A stretch of 64,000 bases of DNA from a virus. Numbering within the stretch: position 1 is the stretch's first letter; every line of letters begins with the position of its first letter. The stretch is from IMG/VR virus record IMGVR_UViG_3300018917_000003; one strand, given 5' to 3'. Made by a program: the position numbers and the translations under genes. The notes below the pieces were generated by a model. It saw only the letters and a program-made list of their open reading frames with translations. It made no database searches and was not told where the DNA came from. Below, piece by piece: positions 31,001-60,214 of this stretch.

Positions 31001-32401
31001 CAGGAAATAGCGCTGGAGGAACAGAAAAATGCCACGCTGCGATCACTCCCGGCATTCTCTGACCCCGCAAAAGAAGCTGAGCGTCAGTCCAGAATCCGGG
31101 CATCAGTCAAGAAAACGACTGAACTAAGACTTCAATTGATAGATGAAGAGAAGCGAGCCTTTGATTTGTTGATTGACCGCCAGATAAAAGGCATTCAAAA
31201 CCAATCTAGAGCGCAAGAACTAGCGTCTGACGTGCAGGTACGAGCAATCGAGCAACAGGGCAAGCAGTACGACTTACTCAGTCAATCGCTAGAGAACCAA
31301 AACAAGCTTCTGCAATCACGCGCAAGTTTGGCTAACGCGCTCAATGGATACATCCAAGGCGAATATAAAATTTTGCAGAACAGCGCGGGTTCTGAAGGTG
31401 AACGCAAGCGACTCATAAAAGAAGCCGCAGACGCCCAACTGGTAGCGATGCAACAGCAGCAAATCGTAGCACAGAAAAATCTTGACATTGAAATCAAGCA
31501 GGCAGAGATTGCTCAAAAACGCGCAGAGTTTGAGGCAGAGATTGCAGAGATAAAAGCCCGCGCCGGGTCAGCTAAGGCTGACGCTGAAGTTCTCAAGGCT
31601 GAAGCCACACTGCAAAAAGTACAGCGCGACCCCAACGCCAGCAATGCCGATGTAGAAGCCGCCAAACTGGATGTTGTAGCCGCCCGTGCCGCTGCGGAGG
31701 CTGCTGTTGCTGATATTGCTTTTGCGATCGCAAATAAAGAAATGGTCGGGCAGAACGGAAAAGTTCTGAAAGTACAGAACGACCTAAAACGGGAAACACA
31801 GTTGATCGAGCAAGTAACCCAAAGACGGGCGGCACAGGCGCAGGCGATCGAGGCAATAGTAGACGAGAATGAGAAAAAGCTGAGACAGCGCCAACTAGCG
31901 GGACGTTTAACACCGGAAGAGTCAGAACGACTGGCACGGATTCAACGCGAGAACCAGCAACGCGAAGCCACCAGGCGACGAGATGAAATAGAGCGAAACA
32001 CATTGATGGGGATTGTTACGCCTAATGGGGTACGGCGGGGGATTCAAGCGGCTGGAGTGCGATCGGCTTCGTTGCTAGGCGAAATCGAGCAAACTGCGGC
32101 GACAGCGCCCAAAGTGCCGGAGCTGAAAAATTTGGTTGCCCAGATGAATATACAGCGACAACAGATTGCCACGGTTAAACCGGATGTCAATCCACTTATC
32201 AGGTTACAGGAAGAAAGCACGGGATACCAGAAAGAGATGCTTGGGGTGCTCAAGCAGCTTAATGGGAAGCCGACCCCCGCGCCCGTGACTCCAGTTTCTA
32301 ATAGTTTCAATATCAAAGCAGAAGCGGGAATATCCGAGGCACAAGTGCTAGGCGTGTTTAGTCAGGTGAGTCAGCAGGTGACACAAATGTTGAAGCGCTA
32401 G
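25064..32401 (+). CDS. Tail tape measure protein (2445 aa)
   Basis: Very large, alpha-helical, Ala/Gln/Glu/Lys-rich. It has a hydrophobic Gly/Ala-rich segment (aa ~330-500) typical of TMPs and long tandem coiled-coil repeats. Confidence 0.85.
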   Translation: MASGINVIFSITDLASSALANVRSEMSRVASGITEASTALFFWSEAFGQIQVASSQFYDLFIGQNERMRQDILATQSSLAAVQDVYMNGIKLTDPTAAIQAFEAPIKKSLNQIAVDSLQLVGVTSGQLTDLFQVALTNATKITAQSKEFADPIKAAERLTISFAGAFGALGIPMEQAGQEMGSILTAQIDSNSVLAKGLGITNQQVSAWSSQGKLVDQLVGRLAPFVAGNALAAKSVGSILSNLQEIVEVTTRLSGEKLTDLFVESLDIIYQYLTSIQPQIQQTLDNVTGFIVGTVDTITKILLPFLPTFESIRDSILSIGGSLGEIAGGSFQLFLAGLTGIMPVLMPVFNLLGEILKVVSALLADPVIQQIVQFAIVVTAIAGPLATIATLMATISGLFAAGGSIGLFVTTLTIIAPQLAATVLTLVSAMASIAGFAGSAGAVVASGSAMAVLGSAITTVAVALGPLALAIAAVAAAAYAFQNAKAGDAAEALDTIGTRSDQSTTGANNTALKLRQLRDAEIIQGELTDEQKANQKALKTQATNYSAQIEADIAAAKAVDTVGNESLENAKQALVAGNQRSLDVLGKYVGGLSTSAKALAELGGIFTQTGNQVIGFEKQIKEATSDAEFQAANKGLAELINTQVESGQIGAEQGTKRLQQILSDTRVEIDGKEAALKALEAIQNLQLENELNANEIAQNEINKMREEGRIGEVKAEQELTDLKLKEIAAQSDSQKASHRERMRQIQEEMNTALEVLDKEIAQKQSNLDKLKSTNVPKVEIVQAERDLAKSKTARNTKQSEFVNIQSEQNDDNALKSAKLAAEAAKVEKQQRDLRKREALKDFDERQKINDSARERGLKDNQEAARESIQIAKGRAKLELSQIKDKTAKLEAEAKKQGKTVKEYDKEAWEALQVQQAEALQNLAKARKDGFEKRLSDIKQDAQEATAIVEAAQAKNEIDNQKAATKTAEIATKSINTQIALIAKEIAANKGNKERLEELNAKRAGLEKDLTEIQKKQLQQRLSDLQQDADERISVIKARNATGAIDNQQAAKQTAAIESASSKNQLQIVQSRIAEVVAADKKRGKVSTELLEELRKQESNTQVKITEITKKEMETRLADLKEDVAERTAVVKASQATGAINNQAAATQTATIERTGANQRLEIVRQQIQQVAAEGKKSGNINVELMETLRKQEAEIQVEITDIDKKAMESRLSDLQQDADERVAVIQAANALGTKENQQTAISTSQIQQKSANDQLKIVRERINTVIEEGKKSGKVNTELLEELRKKEADIQVKITEIQKQELQKRLSDLQQDAEERTAIITAANATGVLDNQEAATKTAKIQQSSLESQLKLIQQRIKTTNPASKELLEELRKQEADTQVKITEIQKQELQKRLTDLREDADERTALIAAANATGIIDNQQAAAKTAKVQQDGLNAELELVRKRISTVGTKNKELLEELRKQEADIQVKITEVQKQEMQKRLSDLEQDAAERIAIAESANAQGLLDNQQAAVATAKIQEASASKQIEIIRKRIDEIRAQGQKTGKVNIELLEELQAQEANAQKKIADIRKQFLQKQLADLQQDADERLSVVTAQNAKGDIDNQAAATRSSAIQKQNLDSQLTLIQNQLKVVGRTNKELREELLKQEADIQVKITEIQKQELQKRLSDLQQDSQERVSVVEAAAAIGEKDNQQTATEIENIQSQSVKNQLELIRERIAATSPLNKELNEELKAQESKLQKELTEIQEQGFQKRLSDLQQDGEERLAIVTSEGVRGLANNQETAIKSAAIQEESAEQQLALIREGLGQASSELREKLLKQEADTQAKIAEIRKQAFDKRLADVEQDGQEQQAILEGQLAQGLTTESEYAQGRYNQTLQFLDAQLVLIRERRSQMSVSDIEGQEALAAQETSLQKRRQDALSQFLEAQLSLLDRENKKATDLLEQSELDRKLITKQAALSGAADKDAAATAEIQATQRRIQQEIALEEQKNATLRSLPAFSDPAKEAERQSRIRASVKKTTELRLQLIDEEKRAFDLLIDRQIKGIQNQSRAQELASDVQVRAIEQQGKQYDLLSQSLENQNKLLQSRASLANALNGYIQGEYKILQNSAGSEGERKRLIKEAADAQLVAMQQQQIVAQKNLDIEIKQAEIAQKRAEFEAEIAEIKARAGSAKADAEVLKAEATLQKVQRDPNASNADVEAAKLDVVAARAAAEAAVADIAFAIANKEMVGQNGKVLKVQNDLKRETQLIEQVTQRRAAQAQAIEAIVDENEKKLRQRQLAGRLTPEESERLARIQRENQQREATRRRDEIERNTLMGIVTPNGVRRGIQAAGVRSASLLGEIEQTAATAPKVPELKNLVAQMNIQRQQIATVKPDVNPLIRLQEESTGYQKEMLGVLKQLNGKPTPAPVTPVSNSFNIKAEAGISEAQVLGVFSQVSQQVTQMLKR
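27783..30735 (+). repeat. Eleven tandem in-frame units (254-287 nt, about 85-95 aa each) inside the tape measure gene
   Basis: The motif (Q)KRLSDLQQDA(D/E)ER..V..A.NA.G..DNQ.AA..TA.IQ.. recurs with its KRLSDL core near nt 27860, 28122, 28405, 28692, 28977, 29240, 29503, 29788, 30052, 30318 and 30572. Confidence 0.9.
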
Positions 32402-32597
32402 AAGCGAGAGCTAATTGGCTTACTCAAATAGATGAGTCTGTCACGCAGATTATTTGTATTTTATATACTTCCTACGTGACAGACTCAACTATTACATTGT
32501 CGACTCTATTTGTATTTTACTTGATGAGGTTGATTGAGTTTTGAAAACAAAAACAAAACAGTCTCAGCGGGTAGAATGAAGAAATACTTCTCGCTTC
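32401..32597 (+). repeat. Structured intergenic element, copy A
   Basis: GAAGCGAGAG...CTTCTCGCTTC termini. Hairpin arms at 32431-32445 and 32475-32487. It begins on the last base of the tape measure TAG. Confidence 0.9.
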
Positions 32598-32743
32598 AAA
32601 AACCTATCACCATCGCCAATTTCGGAAGAAACTCGTTAAGTTCTGACAGAAACTTTGATATTAGACTAGAGCCGAGAGCAAGCATATCGCCAAATTTCAA
32701 ATTGCTAGCCGACCGACAAAGACGGTTCCGGTATTCAGATTAA

Positions 32744-32953
32744 GAAGCGAGAGCAATTCCATCAAGGGGATGATCGCTTTTCTATGGATGAGTTTGTCAC
32801 GCAGATTATTTATATTTTATAACTTTCTACGTGACAAACTCATCTATTATGTCTTTGACTGTATCTACATTTTGACTGTAGAGGTTGTTTTAGTTTTGCA
32901 AGAGGAGATAAAACCAGTCTCAACAAGTGGAATAACTAATTTGCTCTCGCTTC
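32744..32953 (+). repeat. Structured intergenic element, copy B
   Basis: GAAGCGAGAG...CTCTCGCTTC termini. Hairpin 1 carries a compensated C-G to T-A change relative to copy A. Hairpin 2 arms at 32877-32887 and 32915-32925. Confidence 0.9.
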
Positions 32954-32984
32954 AAAACCTGATTGTCACGCAAATGTTGCAGCA

Positions 32985-33416
32985 TTAGAACTGAGAGCAA
33001 GCAAATCTCCAAATCTCCGTCGCAACAGTATTCTTTGCGGGAACAGCAGGGGTTCTGTCTGTGCGACTCAAAGGAATCTGTCGAATCGGAGAACCTTGGG
33101 CATCCACCACCTCAACTCCCTGCAATGCTAGCGTCCCCTTGAAACAGTCGGATTGATACCGAACGCCCCTCAGTGGCTCTCCATCAGGAGAGACGGTGAC
33201 GGTGCGAAAAGTGTTTTTCTTGACGCCAGTGTCGAACAATCGTACCTGAGACGCGAGATCGATAAAGATTTGATCGTCAGTCTCGATCGTGGTCACTAGC
33301 ACCCATTGCTGAGGTGTGTCTTGAGCTTGAACTGTTGTTGCAACAGCGAGGCTTAATACTGAGAGTGCGATCTTTTTGATTGACTTGTTCATTTTATTTA
33401 GAAGGTAATGGTACAC
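32985..33416 (-). CDS. Secreted/exported hypothetical protein (signal peptide)
   Basis: The N-terminus KKIALSVLSLAVATTVQAQD looks like a Sec signal peptide with an AxA cleavage site. It lies in an accessory island between the tape measure and tail fibre modules. Confidence 0.6.
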   Translation of the reverse strand: MYHYLLNKMNKSIKKIALSVLSLAVATTVQAQDTPQQWVLVTTIETDDQIFIDLASQVRLFDTGVKKNTFRTVTVSPDGEPLRGVRYQSDCFKGTLALQGVEVVDAQGSPIRQIPLSRTDRTPAVPAKNTVATEIWRFACSQF

Positions 33417-33428
33417 AAATAAAGCTGA

Positions 33429-33692: not shown

Positions 33693-33843
33693 GGTAGTGG
33701 GTTTTGCTATTGGCTATTCTCACTCACGTTAACACGATCTGTTAACATATATATACAGAAAGTCTCAAAACTTGACATTACGCCCGCAAAACCTTGTCTC
33801 ATAAGGGTTTATAATTTATTTTTAAAATTGTTTACAAAAACTG

Positions 33844-33872
33844 TTGACAAATCAGAAATAAGCTGCTAACGT
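33844..33872 (+). promoter_or_regulatory. Sigma70-like promoter candidate for 33940-34266
   Basis: TTGACA (33844-33849), 17-nt spacer, TAACGT (33867-33872). Confidence 0.4.
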
Positions 33873-34966: not shown

Positions 34967-35017
34967 AAAAAATGCGGTAGAAACACAGCAGCCTGTTTCT
35001 ACCGCATTTGCAGTTTT
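34967..35017. terminator. Bidirectional intrinsic terminator
   Basis: 13-bp stem TGCGGTAGAAACA (34973-34985) / TGTTTCTACCGCA (34994-35006), with an A-run upstream and a T-rich tract downstream. Confidence 0.75.
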
Positions 35018-35080: not shown

Positions 35081-35282
35081 GAAGCGAGACAACACTTAAC
35101 TTGGTTATCATTACAGATGAGTCTGTCACTCAGTTATTTGTATTTTATAACTTTCCTACGTGACAGACTCATCTATTGTATTCTGGACTCTAGTTATCTT
35201 CCACCTGTACAGGTTGCTTTAGTTTTGAAAATAGAAATCGAAGAAACTTCAACAGGTAAGATAGACAAATTGCTCTCGCTTC
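35081..35282 (+). repeat. Structured intergenic element, copy C
   Basis: GAAGCGAGAC...CTCTCGCTTC termini. Perfect 14-bp hairpin GATGAGTCTGTCAC (35116-35129) / GTGACAGACTCATC (35160-35173) with a 30-nt loop. Confidence 0.9.
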
Positions 35283-35303
35283 AACACCAGATCATTGGGT
35301 AGC

Positions 35304-44703: not shown

Positions 44704-47415
44704 ATGATCAACCAGAAGGATATCGCCAAGAAGCAAGCGGAAATAGTTGGTCAGTTGCAGCAGTTCCCGATCGGGCGTACCAATTCTGGCGGCAGGGCGG
44801 GGGGAACCGTTGAAGTAGTTGTCACCAATCCGCTACCGGGTCAGCCAAGTGTAGTACAGGCAAAATGCGCCAATGATTGCCCGCCGGGTGATGTGCAGTT
44901 GTTGAAGGTTGACGATGGGAGCTATGTGGCGCTTTCTCCAAATGCGGCGGTTAAGACTTCGGAGACAACGACGCGACAGGTATCAAAAAAAGAGTCAATC
45001 AAGCCGAAAACAGACGAAGATATTTGGCCATGCACTGTTTGCTTTTTATATTCAAGAATCAAACCAAATACTGAAAACTTAACTGACAATGGGGCAGCAT
45101 CGGGTAATGAAACCAGTTGGGACTTTGTTCGAGGCTATTCAACTTCAAACACCCAAAGTTTTGCTTATGTAGCAAGACAAAGATTTGACGAACTTGGAGA
45201 TTATTACACAGCTCAAGATGCAATTGATAATAAATTAAAACCGGATAGATTAATTGTTCCTATAGGTGGTAATGGAGCAGGCAAAGATAACCTAGTTGCT
45301 GCTTCTGGCTCTCCCGATGCTGTTACAGTTTGGTGGTATATCGGTCAGCTAGGGATAGAAAATGCGACAGGATTAGTAGAAGCAGGTGACGGACAAATAT
45401 TTAAGGCTTTAGGGACAAGTACTTTTCCCGGTAATCAAAACACCGAACAAGGGCCTGGTTTTTGTATGGAAATGTACAGACAAGGCTCTATTTCAGTAAG
45501 TCTTTATCCTATTCAGCAATTCGGATTAGATCCGTTAACTCAACACTTAAAAAGCTCGTTTTTCGCGTTAGGTGGCAGAATTGGTTATTGGGGCAATATC
45601 TATTCTTGGCATGGAATGCAGGATTATACGACAGGAGGAAGTCGTAGAACTTTCTTGTATCGAGAATATTGGAGTGGAATACAGGGAGTCCCTGCCTACC
45701 CTACAGAAACAATTCAAACTCCGACCAGCTTGCCTCCAGACCACGTATTAACTATAAACCCTTGGACTCTTGAGAATGCTGCATGGTATAAATACGGCTG
45801 GGAATATCCTAATAACAAAATTGCGTGTATGTCTGCTGGCGCTATAGTTGCAACCACTTCTGCGATAACAAGTTCTTTTGCTTGTGGTGACACAGTTGCT
45901 GGAGATAAATGGTATTGGTCAGGTGGAATTGGTAGCAGTGCCGGAGCTTTGGACAAGCGAGCTAATTATAGTTCTGCTAGGGGAATGTTTGTTTGCTGGC
46001 AGGGACACAAAGACAATATTGGACTAGCTCATAACTTTTGGGAAGCGTTTAGAATTTACTGGGAAATACCGGGAACCGTTACAAAGCTTCGTTCATGTAA
46101 TCTTTATGGATGCGAATTACCGGGCGGGGGAGGCAGTTATCCGCCCTCACCTCCAGCCGATGCTCAACGATTTGTTAGCGAATCTCACGGCAGAAAAGCT
46201 GAAATATGGTTAAAGATTCACAAAGAAGATTTAGAACCTGTTGAAATAAAATTACCCTTTGAATTTGCAGCAGTAATTGAAAGAATTACAGTATTAGGCG
46301 GTGGCAGCTTGAATACTGGAACTGCTTTTGAAGCAGGAAAAAATCAATCTAGATTTTTAACTTATGGAAAATTTTCGCAATTCGGTGGCGGACAATTTGA
46401 CCCGTATAGTTTAGAAAACCCCCACGCTACTTTGTCCGTGGATAGTGAATTTGCTTATATTGATATTCTTTATGGCGCACAAAGATTGTGGGAAGAACCT
46501 TTAACACTTCCGGTAAAACCTCGGTTAGCAAATATGGGCTTTGGTTCTGCTAGAACAGGAATTGGTTCACAATATGGAAGTGATTTCAATATTGAACGCA
46601 GACCAGCCCTAAATCCTGTCGATACTTCTTTTTCTAATATTAATGTTAGAATATCTGGCGCTACTTTTCATACAACTCCAGATACCCATCCCCGTATAGT
46701 TAAAGATTGCTTTACCTGCTGCCAATCATACAAAGTAAGATTGCCGACCAAAGATAATCCACTAGCAACTATTGTTGCATCTCAAAAATATAAAAATGGT
46801 GAAAACATTACACTGACAGTTGCTAACCCTGACAATGAATTTAATAATAAATTTTTGATAGCTGACTATAGGACGGAAAACTTATTAAACGATTATTTAA
46901 CACCTAATTATGTGCAAAAAGTACACCCACAACCGCATTATGCTACGTTTGGCGGACTCCCTGTATTAATGCAAATAATTGACTACACTCCCCAAAACGT
47001 AGGGCAACTTGCGCCTACGTTTTATAAAAATCAATCAGATTGGAGTGTAATGGATTGGATTCATTATCAGTTGCAAGAATCTCCTAGACGATACAATCCT
47101 CTGTTAACCGTTCTGCCTCCCGGAGTAGTTACGAGGCAGAACGAGCGAGTTGCTACAATATTTGATTTAGATAATAAATTTGACAGACAGGGGCGAGCGG
47201 AAAGAATTATGCCATCTGCGGCTTTTGGTAATTCCACATCTACGGCTCCTACCTATCGAGTATACAATTCAACAGCATATTTCCCATTGTTTGTTAGTTT
47301 CAAAGAACAATTAATTGGGAACGGACTAATTGAAAATAATAAACTAACAAAATGGTTTAGAATTAATACATCTAGCTTTCCTGTTTTTGGACAATTAAAA
47401 CGAAATCCTTTGTAA
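44704..47415 (+). CDS. Large hypothetical protein (903 aa), possible virion or host-interaction protein
   Basis: Long ORF rich in Gly/Trp/Tyr. No motif recognised. Confidence 0.5.
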   Translation: MINQKDIAKKQAEIVGQLQQFPIGRTNSGGRAGGTVEVVVTNPLPGQPSVVQAKCANDCPPGDVQLLKVDDGSYVALSPNAAVKTSETTTRQVSKKESIKPKTDEDIWPCTVCFLYSRIKPNTENLTDNGAASGNETSWDFVRGYSTSNTQSFAYVARQRFDELGDYYTAQDAIDNKLKPDRLIVPIGGNGAGKDNLVAASGSPDAVTVWWYIGQLGIENATGLVEAGDGQIFKALGTSTFPGNQNTEQGPGFCMEMYRQGSISVSLYPIQQFGLDPLTQHLKSSFFALGGRIGYWGNIYSWHGMQDYTTGGSRRTFLYREYWSGIQGVPAYPTETIQTPTSLPPDHVLTINPWTLENAAWYKYGWEYPNNKIACMSAGAIVATTSAITSSFACGDTVAGDKWYWSGGIGSSAGALDKRANYSSARGMFVCWQGHKDNIGLAHNFWEAFRIYWEIPGTVTKLRSCNLYGCELPGGGGSYPPSPPADAQRFVSESHGRKAEIWLKIHKEDLEPVEIKLPFEFAAVIERITVLGGGSLNTGTAFEAGKNQSRFLTYGKFSQFGGGQFDPYSLENPHATLSVDSEFAYIDILYGAQRLWEEPLTLPVKPRLANMGFGSARTGIGSQYGSDFNIERRPALNPVDTSFSNINVRISGATFHTTPDTHPRIVKDCFTCCQSYKVRLPTKDNPLATIVASQKYKNGENITLTVANPDNEFNNKFLIADYRTENLLNDYLTPNYVQKVHPQPHYATFGGLPVLMQIIDYTPQNVGQLAPTFYKNQSDWSVMDWIHYQLQESPRRYNPLLTVLPPGVVTRQNERVATIFDLDNKFDRQGRAERIMPSAAFGNSTSTAPTYRVYNSTAYFPLFVSFKEQLIGNGLIENNKLTKWFRINTSSFPVFGQLKRNPL

Positions 47416-47418
47416 CTC

Positions 47419-48150
47419 ATGGCATATTTCAATGCTGAAAATAAATTATCTAACTGCATAGGATGTTTCTCGACGCTAGGACAAATAATTGCTAATAATC
47501 AAGACTTTAATATTCCTGGCGATTTAATTGACTATAATACTGGTTCTAACCTTGACAGTCTTTTGTCGGGTCAATGCCAGATTTTCCTTACAACTGCTAT
47601 GGAATTTACTTGGTTTGTAGAACAGAGAGATATTATCTACGCACCGCCAGATAGTGCTAGTGGAATTCCGTTAGTTTCGTTTGGCGAAAAAAAAGTTTAT
47701 CCCGCCAAAGTGACTGGATTGAATTTACCTCTTATTGCTAATACCTTTCATACGTCAATTCCTGTAACTGTACGATGGCGAGATGAATTAATTAGACACG
47801 GAAGCTTAGCCGCTTCCTTTGACGTACAAAGTGGTAATTTTAGACCAGGGTTTGGACAGTTAATTTTATCTGATCTAAATAGACCTTTAAAGTCTGCAAC
47901 GGTTCAGACAAACAACTTGGGATTGCCTAGTCTTACGTCAGACACTAAATTCGCAATACAAAACGGCTTAACAGGCCCACTCGGTCGCCTGATGTCAATT
48001 GCCAGCTACGTCAACCCAATACTAGCCAAACAATATGATGATAGTAAAAACAAGAAAAAGAAAAAGTCTTTAAACGAACAAACTTACCAAGACCCGCCAC
48101 AATATCCAACTTATACGCAATATCAAACTAGCGGCGGTTACGGTGGCTAA
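47419..48150 (+). CDS. Hypothetical protein (243 aa) with a Lys-rich C-terminal tract
   Basis: It starts 3 nt after the preceding stop. No motif. Confidence 0.5.
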   Translation: MAYFNAENKLSNCIGCFSTLGQIIANNQDFNIPGDLIDYNTGSNLDSLLSGQCQIFLTTAMEFTWFVEQRDIIYAPPDSASGIPLVSFGEKKVYPAKVTGLNLPLIANTFHTSIPVTVRWRDELIRHGSLAASFDVQSGNFRPGFGQLILSDLNRPLKSATVQTNNLGLPSLTSDTKFAIQNGLTGPLGRLMSIASYVNPILAKQYDDSKNKKKKKSLNEQTYQDPPQYPTYTQYQTSGGYGG

Positions 48151-48971
48151 TTATTGTCTAACCTTGGCTTGATTTCTCTAATAAAATACTCTGGATTGTA
48201 TTTAACATAAACTTCGTGAGTTTCATTCAGGTTGCGCCGTTGTAAAGCTGCATTAATTGCATTTTCAGTAAGTAATGCAATTCTTAAGCGATTTAAATTA
48301 GATACACTCTCAGAATGTATTCGATAACAATACAAAAAGTCTGGAATTTTAAATATTTCGGTTATTTCTGAAATCCGTAGACATAACTCGTAATCTTCGA
48401 GCATATTAAAGTCTAAATCAATGCCACCAACCTGTTCGTAAGCCAACCGACGCATTAGTCTAAAATGAAACACCATAAAGCTAGTCAACAAAGCTTCTTT
48501 AGAATATTCGCGAGAGCAGCGCCACCCAACTCTTAATTTTTGGCCATATTCATCTATATCGAGATAATTTGTGTAAACCAAGCCACATTGCGGGTTCTGA
48601 TCTAGTCCCGCTGCCGTCAACTCGATCGCCAGGGCCTCAAGAACATCATCCGAATCAACCTGCCCCACATACTCACCCCGCGCTGCTTCAAACCCCGTTT
48701 TAAGCGCATAAGCCGCGCCCCTGTTGGTTTTGTCGGTCAACACCCGCACCCGATCGTCCTCCAGTGCAAATTGTTCTGCAATTGCCAATGTCCCATCCGT
48801 AGACCCATCATCAACAATGATGCACTCAAGATCGCGGTAGGTTTGGTCAAGAACTGATTTAATGGCGATGCCGACGTATTGCTCGCGGTTGTAGGCTGGG
48901 ATGATGATCGAGACTTTGGGCGCTTTTGATTCTGCTGGTTTATCTTTTCCGGGCGATGCTGGTTTGTTCAT
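48147..48971 (-). CDS. Family 2 glycosyltransferase
   Basis: VSIIIPAYNREQYVGIAIKSVLDQTYRDLECIIVDDGSTDGT ... QVDSDDVL: the GT-A fold N-terminus with a DxD motif. Confidence 0.85.
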   Translation of the reverse strand: MNKPASPGKDKPAESKAPKVSIIIPAYNREQYVGIAIKSVLDQTYRDLECIIVDDGSTDGTLAIAEQFALEDDRVRVLTDKTNRGAAYALKTGFEAARGEYVGQVDSDDVLEALAIELTAAGLDQNPQCGLVYTNYLDIDEYGQKLRVGWRCSREYSKEALLTSFMVFHFRLMRRLAYEQVGGIDLDFNMLEDYELCLRISEITEIFKIPDFLYCYRIHSESVSNLNRLRIALLTENAINAALQRRNLNETHEVYVKYNPEYFIREIKPRLDNN

Positions 48972-49019
48972 GAAATTGTTAAAGTGAATTCAATATGAAT
49001 AATTTTAATCAAAAAATTT

Positions 49020-49826
49020 ATGAAACGCATATTTTTAGTTGGAGCGCCCCGCAGCGGCACAACCATTCTGCAAAGCTTGCTAGCCGCGCACCCCAATATC
49101 ACGTCGTTTCCTGAAACAAAGTTTTTCCATTATCTTTGGAGCGATCGACTTCACGACAAACTCCGAGAACGACTGCACCGATGGTTCCATGCGGAAATCC
49201 GACGCCCTGATTTGTATAACGAGACAGAAATCCGGCGGCAGGCTACAAGCGATCGAATTCGTTGGTTTGTCGGAGTTCTAGATCGACTGGCAGAAGAAGA
49301 GGGCAATCAAATCTGGTTGGAAAAAACACCAGAGCATATTTATTTCATCAAAGACATTTTGGACTACTTGCCGGATGCGCGATTTATTGACATTATCCGC
49401 AATCCGCTGGAAGTAGTAGCATCTATGCGGAAAGCGACACAAGACCCCCTCAACAACATCCTATGGGGCGGAGAATGGACGCTAGAATTCTGCATTGAGC
49501 GGTGGAAGAGTGCGGCGCTAGTCACTTACTGTTCCCAAAATTCCCCCCAGCATTTAGTCGTTCGCTACGAAGACTTACTAACAGATAAAACCAAGCTGTT
49601 GTCGCAGTGTTGTCACTTTATTAATGTTGCTTACGACGTTGAGATGCTGAGGAATTACCAGGTCAAAGCGGTTAAGCTGGGACTGGGGCTGCCGTGGCAT
49701 GAAGAAATTGATCGTGAGATCGAACCTGCGGCAGTCGCCAAATATGAAAGCTTTTTTAATGAAGACGAGGTGCGACATATTCTGCGACAGACTGCGGAAC
49801 TGCGATCGTACTTTGGGTACGACTGA
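49020..49826 (+). CDS. Sulfotransferase family protein
   Basis: The N-terminal IFLVGAPRSGTTILQSLL matches the PAPS 5'-phosphosulfate-binding loop of sulfotransferases. Size is about 270 aa. Confidence 0.7.
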   Translation: MKRIFLVGAPRSGTTILQSLLAAHPNITSFPETKFFHYLWSDRLHDKLRERLHRWFHAEIRRPDLYNETEIRRQATSDRIRWFVGVLDRLAEEEGNQIWLEKTPEHIYFIKDILDYLPDARFIDIIRNPLEVVASMRKATQDPLNNILWGGEWTLEFCIERWKSAALVTYCSQNSPQHLVVRYEDLLTDKTKLLSQCCHFINVAYDVEMLRNYQVKAVKLGLGLPWHEEIDREIEPAAVAKYESFFNEDEVRHILRQTAELRSYFGYD

Positions 49827-49886
49827 GTGAGACAGGTACAAGTACGCCTCTTGTCGTCTTTTTTCGACAGGGCTTTTTTATGTCCT

Positions 49887-50084
49887 GAAGCGAGAGACAA
49901 TTTGTATAGGCTTATTGTTGAGCTTGTTGCTCAGATTTTTTATATTTATAATAATTCTACGTGACAAACTCATCTATTACATTGTCGCTTCTACTTACAT
50001 TCTGACTGTAGAGGTTGCTTTAGTTTTGAAAACAGAAATTAAACTAGCCTTAACAGGTGGAGCGAACAAAATGGCTCTTGCTTC
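49887..50084 (+). repeat. Structured intergenic element, copy D (left hairpin arm degenerate)
   Basis: GAAGCGAGAG...CTCTTGCTTC termini. The loop carries TATAAT. Hairpin 2 is conserved. Confidence 0.85.
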
Positions 50085-50143
50085 AAAACCCAGACTGTTG
50101 TTTGCGTTATCATTTAGGTAGACTTATTGCAAAAAATAAAATT

Positions 50144-50638
50144 ATGCGCCACATCAACGAAAAAGGGCTGGCACTGGTCAAAGAGTTTGAAGGGTGCGAA
50201 CTAGAAGCGTACTTGTGTCCCGCCGGAGTCTGGACGATCGGGTATGGACACACATTATCGGCGACTCCCGGAATGTCGATTGACGAGGCTATGGCAGATG
50301 CGCTGCTGCGGGAAGATTTGCAGAAGGCTGAAGAAGCGGTTGATCGGCTGGTAACGGTTCCGATCAACGACAACCAGTTTTCGGCATTGGTATCGTTTGT
50401 TTTCAACATTGGTGCATCGGTTTTTACGTTAGGTGGCGAGCCAGAGCCAGGGGCTTTTGATAGATCGACTTTATTGAAAATGCTTAACGCTGGTGCAGCG
50501 CCTGAGACGGTCGCTGCTCAATTTTTGCGATGGAACAAAGCAGGTTATCAACAATTGGCTGGACTGACACGTCGCCGTCATGCCGAGAGGGCATTATTTT
50601 TAGACCCTGTAGCTCCTCAAAACCCCACGAAAAGATAA
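50144..50638 (+). CDS. Phage lysozyme (GH24, T4-lysozyme-like endolysin)
   Basis: GLALVKEFEGCELEAYLCPAGVWTIGYGHT...FSALVSFVFNIG is the GH24 signature. The ATG at 50144 was chosen because the longer ORF (50057) runs into repeat copy D. Confidence 0.88.
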   Translation: MRHINEKGLALVKEFEGCELEAYLCPAGVWTIGYGHTLSATPGMSIDEAMADALLREDLQKAEEAVDRLVTVPINDNQFSALVSFVFNIGASVFTLGGEPEPGAFDRSTLLKMLNAGAAPETVAAQFLRWNKAGYQQLAGLTRRRHAERALFLDPVAPQNPTKR

Positions 50639-50749: not shown

Positions 50750-50997
50750 CACGCAAGAGTTAGAACTTAGATCTATTGTTAAGTTTAGATTATGAGTTCA
50801 TCGGTTCAAACTTTCCAATCGATTCAGGTTTATTGCTGAGGCTGTCACTCAGATTTTTATATTCTATATCTCTTCTACGTGACAGACTCATCTATTATAT
50901 CTTCGACTCTATGGATATTCCACCTGTAGAGCTTGATCGAGTTTTAAAAAAATCAGAGCGACCTCAACCAGTGGAATAGGTAAATGACTCTCGCTTT
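50750..50997 (+). repeat. Structured intergenic element, copy E (longer, divergent left end)
   Basis: Hairpin 1, its loop and hairpin 2 are conserved. The right end is CTCTCGCTTT. The left end GCAAGAGTTAGAACTTAG is shared with a solo fragment near 43750. Confidence 0.8.
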
Positions 50998-51042
50998 AAC
51001 ACCCGCTCACCGCCACCAATTTTGCCAGAAACTCGTTAAACT

Positions 51043-51073
51043 CTGACAAAAACCTTTGATATTTTGGTATAAT
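51043..51073 (+). promoter_or_regulatory. Extended -10 promoter candidate for 51143-52183
   Basis: CTGACA (51043-51048) and TGGTATAAT (51065-51073). Followed by a nested 5'-UTR hairpin GCCACT..AGGACG..CGTCCT..AGTGGC. Confidence 0.55.
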
Positions 51074-51142
51074 TGAATATTAAGCCACTAGGACGTTAGA
51101 GCGTCCTTTTATCAGTGGCAGTCACCTAAACAACTAGGCAAC

Positions 51143-52183
51143 ATGAGTAATATAACAGTTTTGCGGACAGAGCGCAATGGCGTTGAGTTTTTCACTATCG
51201 CAGCTACGGGCGAGTCGGGGATGAGCCAAAGTGGTCTAGCGCGGGCGTGTGGGAAGGATCAATCTACTATTAGTCGGTTGATTGAGGCACTGTCAGGGGA
51301 AAAGTCTTCAAAAACGTTAAAACCCTCAACTTACAAAGGTTTTGCACCGTCAGGCAAATTTTCTTTAAAAAAGCTAAATCCTTCTGTAGACAAGGATTTG
51401 ACACTTATGCAAAAAGTGTATTCAAAATGGCTACAACCTTTTACCGGAAAGGATTTGACACTTATGCGTGACCACTCTAGCTCTGATAGTAAGACTCGCA
51501 ACGTCACGGTTTACACTGCTGAGTTTTGCGCTGCGGTAATCAAACACTACGCTTACAGCGGTTCTGAGACAGCTCAGGACTTTGATTTCTCACTGGGAAT
51601 TATTGGGTTAACGTCCTACATTCAGAGTCAGACAGGATGGTTGCCTAAAGAGTTTAAGGCAGCGCCCAAAGAGCATGACAAGCTGGATGAATTTCTAGGC
51701 TTAGCGATGGAATGGGATCGAGGGCCGATGATGGTAGTTGATTGGGAAGGTGAAGTCGATATGTCTGACAGTTGGACATTTTTCGATGCGATTGTGTTTT
51801 CTGGTTTTACCCCTGAAGAGTTTATCTTATTTGAAGATGAGACAAGAGAGCTAGGACTGCAAAAACATAGCAAGAGTGAACAAGTTAAGCTATTTTTTAA
51901 AAGGAATCCTGAAATAGAAGAAAGGCAAAAACCTTACACCGAGAATGTTAGAAGGATGTTAAGACTGCCCAAAAATTCGCAATTATTTCGGATGACTTTT
52001 TTAGACGAGTACGGATGTAATTTGGATAATCTTTATTCCAAATTAGAAACTTCCGCCTCTGCCTTACGAATATACAGGCTAGGATACGCAGATCGAACAC
52101 AATACGCAGACCCCCAATACCCATACTCCCGTAACTCAGACTATCTGGAAGGCTGGAACGCAAACATCAGCGTAAGCCAATAA
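51143..52183 (+). CDS. Hypothetical DNA-binding protein (N-terminal HTH)
   Basis: GMSQSGLARACGKDQSTISRLIEAL is an HTH-like segment. There is an internal short duplication (..DKDLTLMQ.. / ..GKDLTLMR..). Confidence 0.55.
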   Translation: MSNITVLRTERNGVEFFTIAATGESGMSQSGLARACGKDQSTISRLIEALSGEKSSKTLKPSTYKGFAPSGKFSLKKLNPSVDKDLTLMQKVYSKWLQPFTGKDLTLMRDHSSSDSKTRNVTVYTAEFCAAVIKHYAYSGSETAQDFDFSLGIIGLTSYIQSQTGWLPKEFKAAPKEHDKLDEFLGLAMEWDRGPMMVVDWEGEVDMSDSWTFFDAIVFSGFTPEEFILFEDETRELGLQKHSKSEQVKLFFKRNPEIEERQKPYTENVRRMLRLPKNSQLFRMTFLDEYGCNLDNLYSKLETSASALRIYRLGYADRTQYADPQYPYSRNSDYLEGWNANISVSQ

Positions 52184-55179: not shown

Positions 55180-55644
55180 ATGTTAAGACAAATCCAAACA
55201 AGCATTCTGGCAAGACTTGCCCCGGTGAGGGAGTTATTACATCCTGATGAGGTATTAGGTCAAAAGTTGCCTGATAATGCGTCAAGAATGACTCAAGAGG
55301 ACGCTCGAGATGTCGTAGTGTTCATTAGGGCCGGCAATATCCGAGAGATTCAGATAGAAGTCAATGTGTTGCTCTCTAGCCACGTTAAATCGTCTACCGA
55401 TTGCTTCCCAGTAGTCGAGAAAGTTTGGGGCCTGTTGCATACGTTTTTGCCCGATAGCGCCGCCGGAGTGCTAGCAAATATGAGTTGGGAATTAACGACT
55501 AACGGAACCCGCTGGCTAGCAAAATTCAACTACACGACGGCAATATCGCCTTATGTGTTCGAGTTCCCCGATCCGAAGGCTACTCTACCGGGTATTAACA
55601 ACATAACGTCACCGATCGCACCCTCTGCCACACTCCAATTCTGA
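55180..55644 (+). CDS. Hypothetical protein
   Basis: 154-aa ORF. Its TGA overlaps the first bases of repeat copy F. Confidence 0.5.
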   Translation: MLRQIQTSILARLAPVRELLHPDEVLGQKLPDNASRMTQEDARDVVVFIRAGNIREIQIEVNVLLSSHVKSSTDCFPVVEKVWGLLHTFLPDSAAGVLANMSWELTTNGTRWLAKFNYTTAISPYVFEFPDPKATLPGINNITSPIAPSATLQF

Positions 55645-55847
55645 AGCGAGAAATCACTCAGGTTTGATCTACCTGTATAGATGAGCCTGTTACTCAGATT
55701 TTTTATATTTATAATATTTCTACGTGACAAACTCATGTATTAGGTTTCCAATTCTACCTACATCCTGACTGTAGAGGTCGATCAAGTTTTGAAAGTAAAA
55801 GTTAAACCAATCTCAACAGGTAGGATTGATAAATGACTCTCCCCTCT
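55643..55847 (+). repeat. Structured intergenic element, copy F (right terminus degenerate)
   Basis: GAAGCGAGAA left end. The loop carries TATAAT. Hairpin 2 CTGTAGAGGT / ATCTCAACAG is conserved. Confidence 0.85.
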
Positions 55848-55876
55848 GAACTAGACAGCCGCCGCTGAAACAACCC

Positions 55877-55914
55877 AAAAAACCCGGCAGTATTTTAAAT
55901 CTGCCGGGTTTGGT
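55877..55914. terminator. Bidirectional intrinsic terminator
   Basis: AAAAAACCCGGCAG-TATTTTAAAT-CTGCCGGGTTTGG between convergent units. Confidence 0.75.
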
Positions 55915-57549: not shown

Positions 57550-57612
57550 TTTTGGTTCTCCTATGCTCGAATTTTGCCCCGTAAAGGCGTAGTATAGGCA
57601 GTTAGACAGCAG

Positions 57613-57879
57613 CTAAATAAACTGAGCAATTTGATATGCTTGTTGATAGACCGAATCACTACTCTTTGGCTGCTGACCTTCTTTTTGATCGCTGACTGCT
57701 AAAACCACCTTGATTATCTGACTTTCAATTTCTAAAGGTAGTGTTTGATTGTAGCAGTAATAGTTAGCAGAAGTTTGGAGGAACGTAGGAATATCGGCTT
57801 CGTATTTCAAAAACCGAACTAATTGTTTTAAATTCATATTGCTTTTTGTTTTCAGTTTATTGTTCTTATACAATAGCAC
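57613..57879 (-). CDS. Hypothetical protein
   Basis: 88-aa ORF. No motif. Confidence 0.4.
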   Translation of the reverse strand: MLLYKNNKLKTKSNMNLKQLVRFLKYEADIPTFLQTSANYYCYNQTLPLEIESQIIKVVLAVSDQKEGQQPKSSDSVYQQAYQIAQFI

Positions 57880-57951
57880 ACGCTAACCATTTATGTCAAC
57901 AGACTTGAAAAGATTTTTAACGCAGAGCGGTAGAAACGAAAGAAAAATAAC

Positions 57952-57993
57952 TAATGACTAATGACTAATGACTAATGACTAATGACTAATGAC
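57952..57993. repeat. Tandem heptanucleotide array (TAATGAC)x6
   Basis: Same unit and orientation as nt 1-105. It directly abuts repeat copy G. Confidence 0.95.
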
Positions 57994-58000
57994 TGATGTA

Positions 58001-58169
58001 GAAGCGAGAGATAGTTTTGCTACCCATATGGTTGAGTCTGCTAATTGGTTAAATCTATTATATAGATTACTTGAGTAACAAACTCATCCATTACGACCTC
58101 GCGTCTATGAGTTTCTTGCCTGTAGAGGTTGCTTGAGTCTTGATTTAAAACTCTGTCTAAGAGAAAACC
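58001..58169 (+). repeat. Structured intergenic element, copy G (most degenerate)
   Basis: GAAGCGAGAG left end. Recognisable AACAAACTCATCCATTAC and CCTGTAGAGGTTGCTTGAG cores. Both hairpins are eroded. Confidence 0.7.
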
Positions 58170-58193
58170 GAAAAACTATCTTCAGTTTTTCCC

Positions 58194-58222
58194 TTGACAC
58201 CTTGGCAATAACCATTTAAATT
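58194..58222 (+). promoter_or_regulatory. Sigma70-like promoter candidate for the clamp gene
   Basis: TTGACA (58194-58199), 17-nt spacer, TAAATT (58217-58222). Confidence 0.55.
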
Positions 58223-58262
58223 TAAAGAAGCACGTAAAGGGTTTCTGCCAAAGATTAAAAAT

Positions 58263-59426
58263 ATGGTAAAAGTATCAGAAATAAAAGCGGATCTAGAAAC
58301 ATTGCGAGCTAGTCAGGTGACAAAGGCAGGCAACACCGATCCGCTATTGATGGGCGTGATGGTTACAAGACAGGGCGAACTCTGCAACTTAACGACGTTT
58401 GACGGCATCTCGTCAACGACTCTCACGGGTCGAGATTGGGGACAGTCAATACCGGAGGGCGGTTTTGTTCTACCTTCGGGGATTGCCAGCATTCTCAGAA
58501 TGTTGAATAAGGGGGCGGAGGTTCAGATTTCCAAGGTCAAAACAGGGCAGTTTGAAATCAAACAAGAGGCGTCAAAATGGCGATTCCCGATGTCGCTCAA
58601 CACTAGCGCGTTCTATCCCATCGGTGAGGATATTATTAACAATCAAGTTGACTCTACCTCGATAAACATTGACGGCGAACTGTTGAAAGAGGCAATAACT
58701 AATGTTTATTATTCGATCGGCAAGGAACACACGGCGCTTTGTTGCGCTGAGTTTATATTTAACTTGGAAGATTCAGAGTTTATTGCAGTGGCTACCGATT
58801 CCCGGAGAACAACAATTTGGAAAACAATAAATGTCAAATTCCCCTCCCTTCCTTTGGCAAAATATCGAATACTCATACCAGGGCAAAAACTTCTTGCTCT
58901 CGGAAAATTCGTCAAAGACTGTGCCGAGGTGCAAATATCTTTTACTGATTCCGTGATTGTTTTTGAGAACCCTGCCTTAAAAACTTCCTTATCGATACGG
59001 TTACTAGATGGGAGAGGATATCCCCCGGCTCTTAACTTGTTTAAACTGCCTTTAACCGCCGGGTATACTATTGAACCTAAAGAGCTAATCAATGCCCTGA
59101 AACGGGCAAAAGTGCTGCTACCAGAGAACAAACTAGCACAAAGTAGCACTTTACTTTTAAGATTCGAGAGTGAAAATATTCGGATATCTCACGAGTGCGA
59201 TCTATTCGTTGAGAATGTCTCATACAAGCCCTTACCCCTTGAAGGAATAGAACAACCGGAATCATTCGACATTGCTTTAAACCTTGACTATCTTAATGCA
59301 GCTTTAACACCTTTGACGGGCAAAAATTGCGATATCAAGTTGCATAGCAATGTTGCCTTGATAACTTCTGATACTCTAGGCGGATCGGTAACTCACTTTA
59401 TCGCAACAGTTACCAAAAATAATTAA
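58263..59426 (+). CDS. DNA polymerase III beta sliding-clamp homologue
   Basis: 387 aa. VATDSRR, RLLDGRGYP and IALNLDYLNAAL are collinear with E. coli DnaN VATDGHRLA, KLVDGRFPDY and IGFNVSYVLDVLNAL. Confidence 0.75.
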   Translation: MVKVSEIKADLETLRASQVTKAGNTDPLLMGVMVTRQGELCNLTTFDGISSTTLTGRDWGQSIPEGGFVLPSGIASILRMLNKGAEVQISKVKTGQFEIKQEASKWRFPMSLNTSAFYPIGEDIINNQVDSTSINIDGELLKEAITNVYYSIGKEHTALCCAEFIFNLEDSEFIAVATDSRRTTIWKTINVKFPSLPLAKYRILIPGQKLLALGKFVKDCAEVQISFTDSVIVFENPALKTSLSIRLLDGRGYPPALNLFKLPLTAGYTIEPKELINALKRAKVLLPENKLAQSSTLLLRFESENIRISHECDLFVENVSYKPLPLEGIEQPESFDIALNLDYLNAALTPLTGKNCDIKLHSNVALITSDTLGGSVTHFIATVTKNN

Positions 59427-59439
59427 TAGGAGAATCAAA

Positions 59440-59967
59440 ATGGATAAGAACCCTGATGAATTTAGACGGCTCAATCAACAGCTTGAGCATCTAAAAAAGA
59501 TGGTTGTCAGATATAAACAGGCTGAGAATTGGGAAAAATTGACCTTTAGTGATCGAGTCATGATTGACAACAGCGACTCGATCCACGACGGGGCGATCGG
59601 AAAATTCATAACTCATCAATGGAGTTCCAGCGGTTTCGTTTGCCTGTTGGTTGAATTTGAAGATGGTTCCCGGCATTACTATCTACCGATTCACCTTGTG
59701 AAACATTTTGACGTTGAGAAGATGACCGCGCAAGATTTGGAACCGCTACGCTCTAGACCAACACCCGCCCTCGTAGCAGAATCGGAACCGACGGCGACAA
59801 TCACACTGGATGAAGCGAGCGAGAGAATCATTGAGGCAAAACTGGCACAGGTTGTCAAAATGCCTGAGTCTGTCAGAAAGAAAGTTTTGTCCAGCACCCT
59901 CGCAGCCGAATTAGTACCCCAAGCGCTTGAGCTTGCCGTCAAGCGAGGCATCATTCCAGCTTTCTAG
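59440..59967 (+). CDS. Hypothetical protein
   Basis: 175-aa ORF. GGAGAATCAAAATG provides an SD. Confidence 0.55.
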   Translation: MDKNPDEFRRLNQQLEHLKKMVVRYKQAENWEKLTFSDRVMIDNSDSIHDGAIGKFITHQWSSSGFVCLLVEFEDGSRHYYLPIHLVKHFDVEKMTAQDLEPLRSRPTPALVAESEPTATITLDEASERIIEAKLAQVVKMPESVRKKVLSSTLAAELVPQALELAVKRGIIPAF

Positions 59968-59990
59968 TCAATCATCCCAAAAAACTATCA

Positions 59991-60016
59991 GACGGGCCGT
60001 TAGACCCGTCTTTTTT
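59991..60016 (+). terminator. Intrinsic terminator
   Basis: GACGGG-CCGTTAGA-CCCGTC followed by TTTTTT. Confidence 0.8.
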
Positions 60017-60021
60017 AGTTT

Positions 60022-60214
60022 GAGGCGAGAGAAGTTTTGCTGAATCCTATAGATGAGTCTGTCACTCAGATTTTTTATATTTATAATCTTCCTACGTGAC
60101 AAGCTCATCTATTGTATTGTCGCTTCTATCTGCATTCTGATTGTAGAGGTCGATCGAGTTTTGAAAATAGAAATCAAAACTGCCTCAGCAAATAAGAAAA
60201 ACAGATTGCTCCCG
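60022..60214 (+). repeat. Structured intergenic element, copy H
   Basis: GAGGCGAGAG left end. Hairpin arms at 60052-60065 and 60096-60109. TATAAT at 60082-60087. The right terminus is degenerate (TTGCTCCCG). Confidence 0.85.

Follow-up and report, generated by a model that had tools for sequence, protein, structure and literature searches.

A composite intergenic repeat of an uncultured cyanophage clade, with a promoter-like core and a likely place at gene-cassette borders

Background

The 64,000-nucleotide virus record IMGVR_UViG_3300018917_000003 from IMG/VR (the whole stretch that was analysed, hereafter the window) contains eight copies, c1 to c8, of a structured intergenic element, which were subjected to repeat, covariance-model and comparative analysis and set against known repeats of phages and bacteria. 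Nearest to the element are the promoter-early stem-loop (PeSL) cassettes of T4-type phages, where copies delimit the indels and replacements that separate close relatives and where chimeric copies remain (Arbiol et al. 2010, PMC2839356; Comeau et al. 2014, PMC4122927), and for which promoter and terminator activity as well as mini-circles were demonstrated (PMC2839356). For halovirus HF2, virus-specific intergenic repeats of 29–58 bp with AT-rich promoter motifs have been described (PMC8707807). The likeness to the present element lies in these virus-specific intergenic repeats and AT-rich promoter motifs, and the differences in their length, their archaeal setting and their lack of a palindrome-embedded layout.

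The element resembles PeSLs in being an intergenic repeat private to a phage lineage, with a sigma70-like promoter and stem-loops, in having its copies concentrated in variable regions beside ORFans and auxiliary genes, and in the gene gain, loss and replacement seen at copies, some of which are chimeric (here c3 and c5). It differs in having no sequence homology to them and in belonging to another type of phage (HK97-like capsid, portal_3, cyanobacterial host). Its promoter-like core is nested within a palindrome, whereas in PeSLs the promoter follows a GC-rich terminator hairpin, and it has an additional conserved downstream hairpin, two inverted 10-nt end boxes, and separate canonical terminators and promoters beside it. 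PeSL activity and mini-circles have been demonstrated, whereas for the present element promoter activity is predicted from sequence; by descent the element stands outside the PeSL family.

PeSLs are shorter than the approximately 200 bp of the present element, and to our knowledge mobile regulatory cassettes of this type are known only from T4-like myoviruses. Promoter-bearing miniature inverted-repeat transposable elements (MITEs) of bacteria, such as the Correia elements of Neisseria and the cyanobacterial Nezha, are 100–250 bp long, intergenic and bounded by terminal inverted repeats; they can supply promoters and stop codons and give co-transcribed hairpins.

We favour, with about even confidence, the explanation that the element is a lineage-specific composite intergenic regulatory cassette of PeSL-like character, which doubles as portable homology for the shuffling of gene cassettes.

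Copies and anatomy of the element

A covariance model built from the eight window copies (R1) found exactly eight copies in the 64-kb window, all on the + strand, with 132–210 bits (E 1e-27 to 1e-45). With filters off no ninth copy was found in the window, and the minus-strand matches were echoes of the palindrome. The family was recovered as D2/D3/D7/D8 by a repeat search, and the eight intervals, when aligned, showed long invariant blocks and a mean column identity of 60%. These results bear out the eight + strand copies placed by a first-pass annotation, which had been made from the letters alone. In the window, the half-palindrome GATGAGTCTGTCAC had 16 matches against 3.7 expected and the 3' box 9 against 0.8, counts that were reached by no shuffle. 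The existence of the repeat family is essentially certain.

Window genes include those for terminase, portal (portal_3 type), HK97-type capsid, prohead protease, tail fibres, lysozyme, RusA, the DNA polymerase III beta clamp and KilA-N, by which the window is identified as part of a tailed phage genome. A 111-kb ENA contig carries sequence identical to the window. Four other assemblies of the window phage are all 100% identical, and for this reason strain-level polymorphism of the copies is unavailable. The best capsid matches, about 30% identical, are to S-CBS4 and an uncultured Caudoviricetes genome. Relatives of the lysozyme, about 70% identical, are annotated in Microcoleus and Kamptonema, and the host is therefore probably an oscillatorian (filamentous) cyanobacterium of one of these genera. 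For comparative analysis a 151.7-kb IMG/VR contig (hereafter the relative), which is colinear with the window at 65–85% nucleotide identity, was used; about 103 kb of its sequence was covered by the scans and about 49 kb lay outside them. Three further relatives were found via the lysozyme gene (L140, L141/L142 and L144); L143 is a more distant one.

The anatomy was described over 31 copies from the window and its relatives. The element is an AT-rich, strictly intergenic composite of about 200 bp. It opens with a 5' box, GARGCGAGAG(ATAATTGG), and a variable, unconserved spacer, after which a palindrome (hairpin 1), ATAGATGAGTCTGTCACTCAG ... CTnnGTGACAAACTCATCTAT, pairs over 17–21 bp around a 22–30-nt AT/T-rich loop that holds T(C/T)TATAAT. 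The 3' arm of the palindrome is a near-invariant 17-mer, TGACAAACTCATCTATT. A linker (..TCGA.TCTAT..) leads to hairpin 2, imperfect and some 22 bp long (CTGTAGAGGTTG ... CAGTCTCAACAG), and the element closes with the 3' box CTCTCGCTTCAAAACC. The palindrome is followed by a moderately T-rich tract, and the terminator scan made no call on it. It was never lost and, in the window motif search, was found nowhere outside the elements; about one third of the copies keep the 5' half alone. The window copies are as follows.

32401–32603, + strand: c1, R1 205.6 bits; 5' box GAAGCGAGAG overlaps the TAG stop of a 2445-amino-acid open reading frame (ORF); −10 degenerate (TATATA)
32744–32959, + strand: c2, R1 194.7 bits; 5' and 3' boxes intact, spacer longer
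35081–35288, + strand: c3, R1 195.7 bits; chimeric copy
49887–50090, + strand: c4, R1 209.9 bits, the top-scoring copy; 5' box 49887–49896, hairpin 1 49914–49977, hairpin 2 50000–50062, 3' box 50075–50090; −35 TTGTTG 49924–49929, −10 TATAAT 49947–49952
50803–51003, + strand: c5, R1 180.7 bits; 3' box present, 5' box lost via a rearrangement break just upstream of hairpin 1
55643–55852, + strand: c6, R1 198.3 bits; overlaps the TGA stop of ORF 55180–55644; −35 CTGTTA 55687–55692, −10 TATAAT 55710–55715
58001–58195, + strand: c7, R1 132 bits, the most diverged; 5' box and hairpin 1 kept, 3' half degenerate and running into a promoter at 58194
60022–60224, + strand: c8, R1 204.1 bits; 5' box 60022–60031, hairpin 1 60049–60112, hairpin 2 60135–60197, degenerate 3' box 60209–60224; −35 CTGTCA 60059–60064, −10 TATAAT 60082–60087, with a generic promoter scan match at 60059–60087

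The terminal inverted repeat, GAAGCGAGAG / CTCTCGCTTC, was pairable in 82% of cells over 22 copies. The first-pass annotation had given all copies a 10-nt repeat of this kind; it is intact in c1–c4 and degenerate in c6 and c8, with the 5' box only in c7 and the 3' box only in c5. The arms of hairpin 1, put at 12–14 bp around a loop of about 30 nt, are in fact about 17–21 bp (ATAGATGAGTCTGTCACTCAG / CTnnGTGACAGACTCATCTAT), and the AT-rich loop in the window copies is 22–23 nt. Two copies were correctly said to overlap an upstream stop codon, namely c1 and c6. The orthologue of c1 lies in the relative at 89592–89793, and the stop codon of the 2445-amino-acid ORF overlaps the first base of c1 both there and in the window phage. 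Copy c4 is clear of the lysozyme gene, for which the correct start codon is the ATG at 50144.

Distribution

In the covered part of the relative, R1 found 19 strong and 2 weaker copies, and two to three copies each were found in L140, L141 and L144. Neither this repeat nor an analogous one was found in L143. A DNA search of 50,697 GenBank phages and the PLSDB plasmids gave no match. Against Rfam the whole window had zero matches at the gathering score, the best sub-threshold match having 23 bits against a cut-off of 49. These searches uphold the statement of the first-pass annotation that the element is not assignable to any known family. Five loci were returned by a pattern scan of JGI metagenomes, none confirmed by R1 at E below 1e-6, and were taken as chance; a looser scan of IMG/VR with the 17-mer gave 24 other contigs, all chance matches, and a pattern with 14 specified bases gave 120 chance matches among genome contigs, in unrelated bacteria. 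The repeat family thus appears to be private to a narrow cyanophage clade. It is real, constrained and previously undescribed.

Rearrangements between relatives

Comparison of the genomes points to general recombination at copies, by which the intervening genes are deleted, inserted or relocated. The left flank of c3 matches that of the relative's copy 92528 and its right flank that of copy 97782 (three-way alignment, blastn); the 5.2 kb between these two copies are absent from the window, and c3 itself is a mosaic. From hairpin 1 onward c5 is orthologous to the relative's copy 117028, and the sequence upstream corresponds to the region that precedes copy 115231; in the relative 1.8 kb lie between these copies. 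The module formed by c2 and the minus-strand gene 32985–33416, whose product is 85% identical in the relative, moves together and lies there at 94845–95488, in another repeat-bounded slot. No two relatives have the same content in the slot from the lysozyme gene to a conserved 346-amino-acid gene, and copies form its limits throughout.

Window: a single copy, c5
151.7-kb relative: PAPS reductase followed by an ORF, with one copy before, one between and one after them
L144: PAPS reductase, preceded by one copy and followed by two
L140: PAPS reductase between two copies
L141: six other genes, on the minus strand, then a 203-amino-acid gene between two copies

Three relatives thus have the PAPS-reductase cassette with copies on either side, and the window lacks it. 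The coordinates of the cassette are 10873–11895 in L140, 10732–11745 in L144 and 115467–116489 in the 151.7-kb relative. Genes for a GT2 glycosyltransferase and a sulfotransferase adjoin at 48147–49826 of the window, and the region with the added PAPS reductase looks like an auxiliary module for sulfur metabolism or sulfation.

In the alignable 28 kb (window 24–52 kb), four of five rearrangement junctions were at copies, which are likely to serve as cassette borders. In c3 the crossover precedes the 5' box by about 25 nt, and in c2 and c5 it falls between that box and hairpin 1; such varying points fit homologous exchange. About 20 dispersed copies have identical blocks of 17–25 nt in common.

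Recombination at the same borders might also be site-specific, with the copies acting as attC-like sites of a phage-borne cassette system served by some recombinase. Integron attC sites are likewise structured, inverted-repeat-ended sites at cassette 3' ends, in the same orientation over long arrays whose content varies between relatives. The present elements flank single-gene cassettes, have inverted-repeat ends overlapped on the 5' side by the stops of upstream ORFs, keep one strand over 60 kb and include empty tandem sites. Against this, no integrase was found: tyrosine and serine recombinases (Phage_integrase, Resolvase) were lacking among the scanned window ORFs and 61 proteins from the non-colinear parts of the relative, as were DDE and Y1 transposases. 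Furthermore, crossovers are not fixed (c2, c3 and c5 differ), copies are mosaic as after homologous exchange, cassette genes lie in both orientations, and primary sequence is conserved rather than structure alone. An attC-like system is therefore very unlikely.

Age, constraint and mobility

Copies are 55–78% identical pairwise, and orthologous copies of the window phage and the relative are 70–75% identical; these values together argue that there was no recent burst of copying. Between orthologous copies identity was highest in the palindrome arms (0.81–0.83), followed by the 3' tail (0.79), the 5' box (0.75) and hairpin 2 (0.74), with the spacer far below (0.34). At four-fold degenerate sites of neighbouring genes it was 0.51, so that the boxes, the palindrome arms and hairpin 2 (0.74–0.83) are clearly under constraint. 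Since non-orthologous copies are only 55–78% identical, the motifs have been maintained and not recently copied.

These values bear on the possibility that the element is an old non-autonomous MITE with 10-bp terminal inverted repeats that once spread in this phage lineage, whose copies are now fixed and partly co-opted relics and for which recombination is a by-product. Its length of about 200 bp, AT-richness and strictly intergenic position agree with this, as do the largely pairable ends, the tandem empty copy pairs (c1–c2, L144 11799/12007, relative 89592/89811) and the presence of both orientations in the relative. Copy c4 fits as well, since it occurs only in the window phage, with no counterpart at its site in the relative, L140 or L144; the intergenic DNA there is too diverged for a clean empty site to be aligned. 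However, no copies are near-identical, the maximum being 78%, and no direct repeat flanks any of 26 copies, the flanks being different. The first-pass annotation had named many host copies in both orientations, with target-site duplications, as marks of an ordinary MITE; both orientations were seen in the relative, and target-site duplications were not found. In addition, no transposase other than an unlinked TnpB was seen in the window or the 61 proteins, and there were no true copies in other IMG/VR contigs, PLSDB, GenBank phages or the JGI pattern scan. Internal motifs are conserved well above neutral sites, unlike relics, and the ends are not maintained together, many copies keeping the 5' half alone. 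The element further differs from known MITEs in being phage-borne, with no copies found in hosts, where no direct search of host genomes was made. A MITE origin is on balance fairly unlikely. A direct repeat of about 25 nt around c2 was rejected as a target duplication, as it consists of the 3' end of gene 32985–33416 and an apparent relic of a similar gene end.

The orientation of the copies had suggested another kind of mobility to the first-pass annotation, namely a non-autonomous IS200/IS605-like element moved through single-stranded DNA, which would explain the strand bias. Such an element, comparable to palindrome-associated transposable elements (PATEs), would be moved by a Y1 transposase and could be tied to the TnpB near c8. 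The eight window copies all lie on one strand and contain hairpins, PATEs and repetitive extragenic palindromes (REPs) being likewise short, hairpin-bearing, strand-biased intergenic repeats, and a TnpB gene begins 307 nt downstream of c8. In the relative, however, strong matches are 14 + and 5 −, interleaved as + + − − + − in its first 20 kb; the all-plus rule is regional, holding across the window and the 60 kb that are colinear with it in the relative, and elsewhere in the relative there are five + and five −. No Y1_Tnp was found among the scanned proteins. The TnpB of the relative is only 32% identical at the amino-acid level and lies at a different site, about 2 kb from any copy, and no copy other than c8 has a TnpB beside it. 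IS200/IS605 elements are not known to have terminal inverted repeats, and their subterminal hairpins are short, whereas the present element has terminal inverted repeats and loops of 22–30 nt, and its copies are old. Both orientations, the absence of TnpA or another recombinase among the scanned proteins and the unlinked TnpB argue against such mobility, which we consider extremely unlikely.

The TnpB gene (OrfB_IS605 and Cas12f-like TNB domains) lies at 60532–61608 (+). Its 3' end and about 85 nt downstream, resembling an omega-RNA and right end, are duplicated in tandem with 85% identity (61576–61691 and 61738–61854). A link of the element to TnpB or an omega-RNA was rejected, as TnpB has no counterpart beside other copies. 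A strand bias related to replication was also rejected, as GC and AT skew just follow gene orientation.

Promoter-like core

A yTGTyA-N17-TATAAT (or TATAGT) motif lies at one fixed position in 21 of the 31 copies, with a spacing of 16–18 in three copies. The −35-like yTGTyA falls within the 5' arm of the palindrome and the −10 within the loop, ending 16 nt before CTCAT. The match is on the sense strand only, and few positions in the loop are better conserved than the TATA of the −10. The element therefore carries a putative sigma70-like promoter at a fixed position, predicted from the sequence match. A start about 7 nt after the −10 would fall on the first bases of the 3' arm; TGACAAACTCATCTATT would then be the 5' end of an RNA with hairpin 2 as its body.

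Two other candidates were dropped. For a minus-strand promoter there was no acceptable −10 at the right spacing (by eye, on the reverse-complemented consensus). The invariant 17-mer bears some resemblance to T7/SP6-type promoters (ACTCA..CTAT), and no single-subunit RNA polymerase was found.

Genomic context

Canonical signals of transcription were found beside many copies.

49849–49872, + strand: intrinsic-terminator-like hairpin with T-run, directly upstream of c4
59990–60011, + strand: intrinsic terminator, directly upstream of c8
34970–35009, bidirectional: 16-bp terminator-like hairpin, about 70 nt upstream of c3
55883–55908, bidirectional: terminator-like GC-rich hairpin between A- and T-runs, 30 nt downstream of c6
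60267–60295, + strand: canonical promoter TTGACA-N17-TATCTT, between c8 and tnpB
51043–51073 and 58194–58222: similar promoters, after c5 and c7

Over all, canonical terminators lie just before c3, c4, c5, c8 and the relative's copies 19705 and 116541, and just after c6 and the relative's copy 52215. Promoters of the form (GG)TTGACA-N17-TAnnnT lie 0–50 nt downstream of the element whenever the next gene is co-oriented. From these flanking signals the common order is gene, terminator, element, promoter, gene. The element is thus neither the main terminator nor the main promoter, and fills the insulated space between transcription units.

Near-consensus GGTTGACA-N17-TAnnnT promoters also lie upstream of + strand genes at 33842, 52654, 53718 and 60265 (+); this is the ordinary promoter type of the phage, distinct from the element-borne one. 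Downstream of some copies there is a second shared leader, made up of CTGACA-N17-TATAAT, ATTAAGCCAC, a hairpin AGGACG..CGTCCT and a T-run. It was seen at 51040–51115, truncated at 32604–32660, and after the relative's copies 117028, 13751 and 147664.

A co-oriented gene precedes 16 of 27 copies, and five copies abut or overlap its stop codon. Between co-directional genes, 7 copies lie with and 3 against the direction of transcription, which is not significant. The minus-strand virion block is free of copies, as first stated. That copies sit at most boundaries of orientation or module was overstated: about 4 of some 13 orientation switches carry one, among them three convergent junctions.

RNA and coding tests

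Covariation was tested on 22 full copies against a control of 500 shuffles. The score of 0.181 was not above the shuffle mean of 0.175 and was reached by 85 of the 500 shuffles, and pairing was 87.6% against 87.3% in the control; the statistical support for covariation sought in the first-pass annotation is thus lacking in these copies. A 26-copy alignment scores higher but includes degenerate copies fitted to the model. As covariation does not exceed the shuffle control, the inverted repeats are conserved as sequence. Folding z-scores are equal on the two strands, with means of −4.45 and −4.22. Hairpin 2 has 106 G.U against 33 C.A cells (binomial p 4e-10, the cells not being independent) and hairpin 1 has 27 against 20 (Fisher test versus hairpin 2, p 0.016). 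The excess no more than hints at a role of hairpin 2 in sense-strand RNA.

These results were weighed with respect to RNA as the primary product, whether sense RNAs of about 110 nt from the loop promoter or an element of 3' untranslated regions (UTRs) for processing or stability, such as an RNase III-like site. In the first form, hairpin 2 would be the body and the invariant 17-mer the 5' seed. The G.U excess on the sense strand only, the G.U tolerated by both boxes in c8 and in copies L135:4424 and L134:1627, a folding z of about −4.4 and the position of copies after co-oriented genes and at their stop codons would all fit. As several copies are immediately preceded by terminators, the element would need a promoter of its own if it is expressed at all. 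Against an RNA stand the missing covariation, an antisense strand that folds equally well, the lack of an Rfam match and of an intrinsic terminator to set a 3' end, and a hairpin 1 free of strand asymmetry. The 3' half, including hairpin 2, is moreover lost in about one third of copies, whereas the palindrome is always kept. The structured small RNA or 3'-UTR element of the first-pass annotation is thus weakly supported, by the 106:33 ratio in hairpin 2, and we regard it as unlikely.

Conservation of the arms as sequence, not by covariation, would suit a binding-site array at the DNA level, an operator or architectural regulon in which a phage protein at about 20 sites times transcription or organises, pairs or partitions the genome. 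The symmetry of hairpin 1 between strands, the conservation of the 5' box in copies that have lost its partner and the restriction of the palindrome to the elements are consistent with this, and there are precedents in SPO1 (TF1 sites), in cluster A mycobacteriophages (stoperators) and in N15 (dispersed sopC-like sites). The phage encodes candidate DNA-binding proteins: two of the HU/IHF family (131–433 and 1227–1526), several helix-turn-helix proteins (HTH_3, CI-like), KilA-N and a ParB_N-like protein (5651–7102). Nevertheless, no protein was linked to the site, a centre-to-centre spacing of 44 bp for 14-bp half-sites is unusual, and hairpin 2 and its G.U bias are not accounted for by an array alone. 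Such an array, which is compatible with the favoured explanation and not exclusive of it, appears improbable.

The HU/IHF-family genes (Bac_DNA_binding; 131–433 and 1227–1526, both − strand) are paralogous, and their DNA forms a 72% repeat, D9 (153–303 / 1264–1414). The pair are candidate architectural proteins for palindromic elements. The ParB_N-like domain at 5651–7102 (−), in the virion block, is weak and under the Pfam cut-off.

A small protein was also considered and rejected. A frame of 57–72 codons, starting at the ATG of GATGAG within the 5' arm, stays open in only 6 of 24 copies; stops are scattered, the start codon is variable, and none of the element ORFs passes the codon-usage score. 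A short TGAGT..ACTCA+T6 hairpin was rejected as an intrinsic terminator, as its 5-bp stem is weak and unconserved (for example in L135:3114).

Interpretation

In the composite regulatory cassette that we favour, a host RNA polymerase of sigma70 type would begin transcription at the 3' arm and continue through hairpin 2, which would result in a second, element-borne promoter or leader, or in a short sense RNA. The full palindrome could serve as an attenuator, or as a structure at RNA ends, when transcripts read through from upstream, and palindrome and boxes may be read by a DNA-binding protein. Selection, on this explanation, keeps the element where transcription units and gene cassettes border on one another in the cyanophage clade. 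Among the functions first proposed, the PeSL-like promoter and terminator cassette is the best supported, by the promoter-like motif fixed in 21 of 31 copies and the breaks at copies; the element is not itself the main terminator, canonical terminators lying beside it, and is not a PeSL homologue.

Several points weigh against this explanation. The promoter is a prediction from sequence; the −10 is degraded in 5 of the 8 window copies (TATATA, TATAAC, TATATC, TATAGA), its last two positions are only moderately conserved overall, and downstream genes have their own, better promoters. As roughly every second copy faces a convergent gene, driving genes cannot be its general role. The covariation and pairing values and the equal folding of both strands count in the same direction, and the putative RNA has no closing terminator. 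On the side of recombination, the fifth junction (33400/33813) is away from any copy, and copies fill a large share of intergenic DNA, so that breakpoints at copies are partly expected. The regional all-plus orientation is left unaccounted for. Conservation of the two 10-nt boxes fits neither a promoter nor passive homology, and the 5' box survives in copies that have lost the whole 3' half.

The conserved boxes, the strand bias of the region and the excess of G.U in hairpin 2 allow for a protein-binding array, a role as RNA or an ancient domesticated MITE and, least likely, a site-specific cassette system. A further joint proposal, which we consider improbable, is that the elements are parts of a phage gene-cassette system read by an unrecognised phage protein or, alternatively, a sense-RNA family. 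In the first case a self-promoting structured site would serve the HU/IHF-like pair or an unannotated enzyme in capturing, expressing and exchanging single-gene cassettes such as PAPS reductase among cyanophages. In the second, the invariant 5' 17-mer from about 20 copies would pair with the 5' arm of read-through transcripts and give genome-wide post-transcriptional control at cassette borders.

If the composite explanation holds, the element would be an independent, non-homologous and architecturally different counterpart of PeSLs in an uncultured cyanophage clade, and promoter-bearing repeats used as recombination handles would be a convergent route by which large phages shuffle accessory genes, here including the sulfur-metabolism genes for PAPS reductase and sulfotransferase. 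For work with filamentous cyanobacteria the element is a compact candidate part, as a promoter or an insulator, and its covariance model could be used for tracking the phage clade. With about 20 conserved palindromes that hold a −10 in the loop, it also offers a test case for questions on cruciform extrusion or regulation by protein binding.

Other features of the window

The 2445-amino-acid ORF at 25064–32401 (+) contains 8–10 tandem repeats of 264/285 nt (88–95 amino acids) at 28043–30586. In the virion block, tail-fibre-like paralogues carry an ADP-ribosyltransferase domain (10887–12197, −) and an InPase domain (8980–10548, −), and have repeats in common at 8301–8600, 9611–9910 and 11644–11943. 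A 903-amino-acid protein encoded at 44704–47415 (+) is kept in all relatives (879–980 amino acids) and had no sequence match in Pfam, PHROG or PDB; PDB sequence searches with the 903-, 346- and 381-amino-acid proteins found nothing. Inside the conserved 346-amino-acid ORF there is a 57-nt tandem duplication (51356–51467, 75% identical) that holds a small hairpin and TTGACAC. The heptamer ACTAATG forms tandem arrays at 6–110 and 57950–57995, the second adjoining c7; these arrays resemble the short tandem heptamer repeats of filamentous cyanobacteria.

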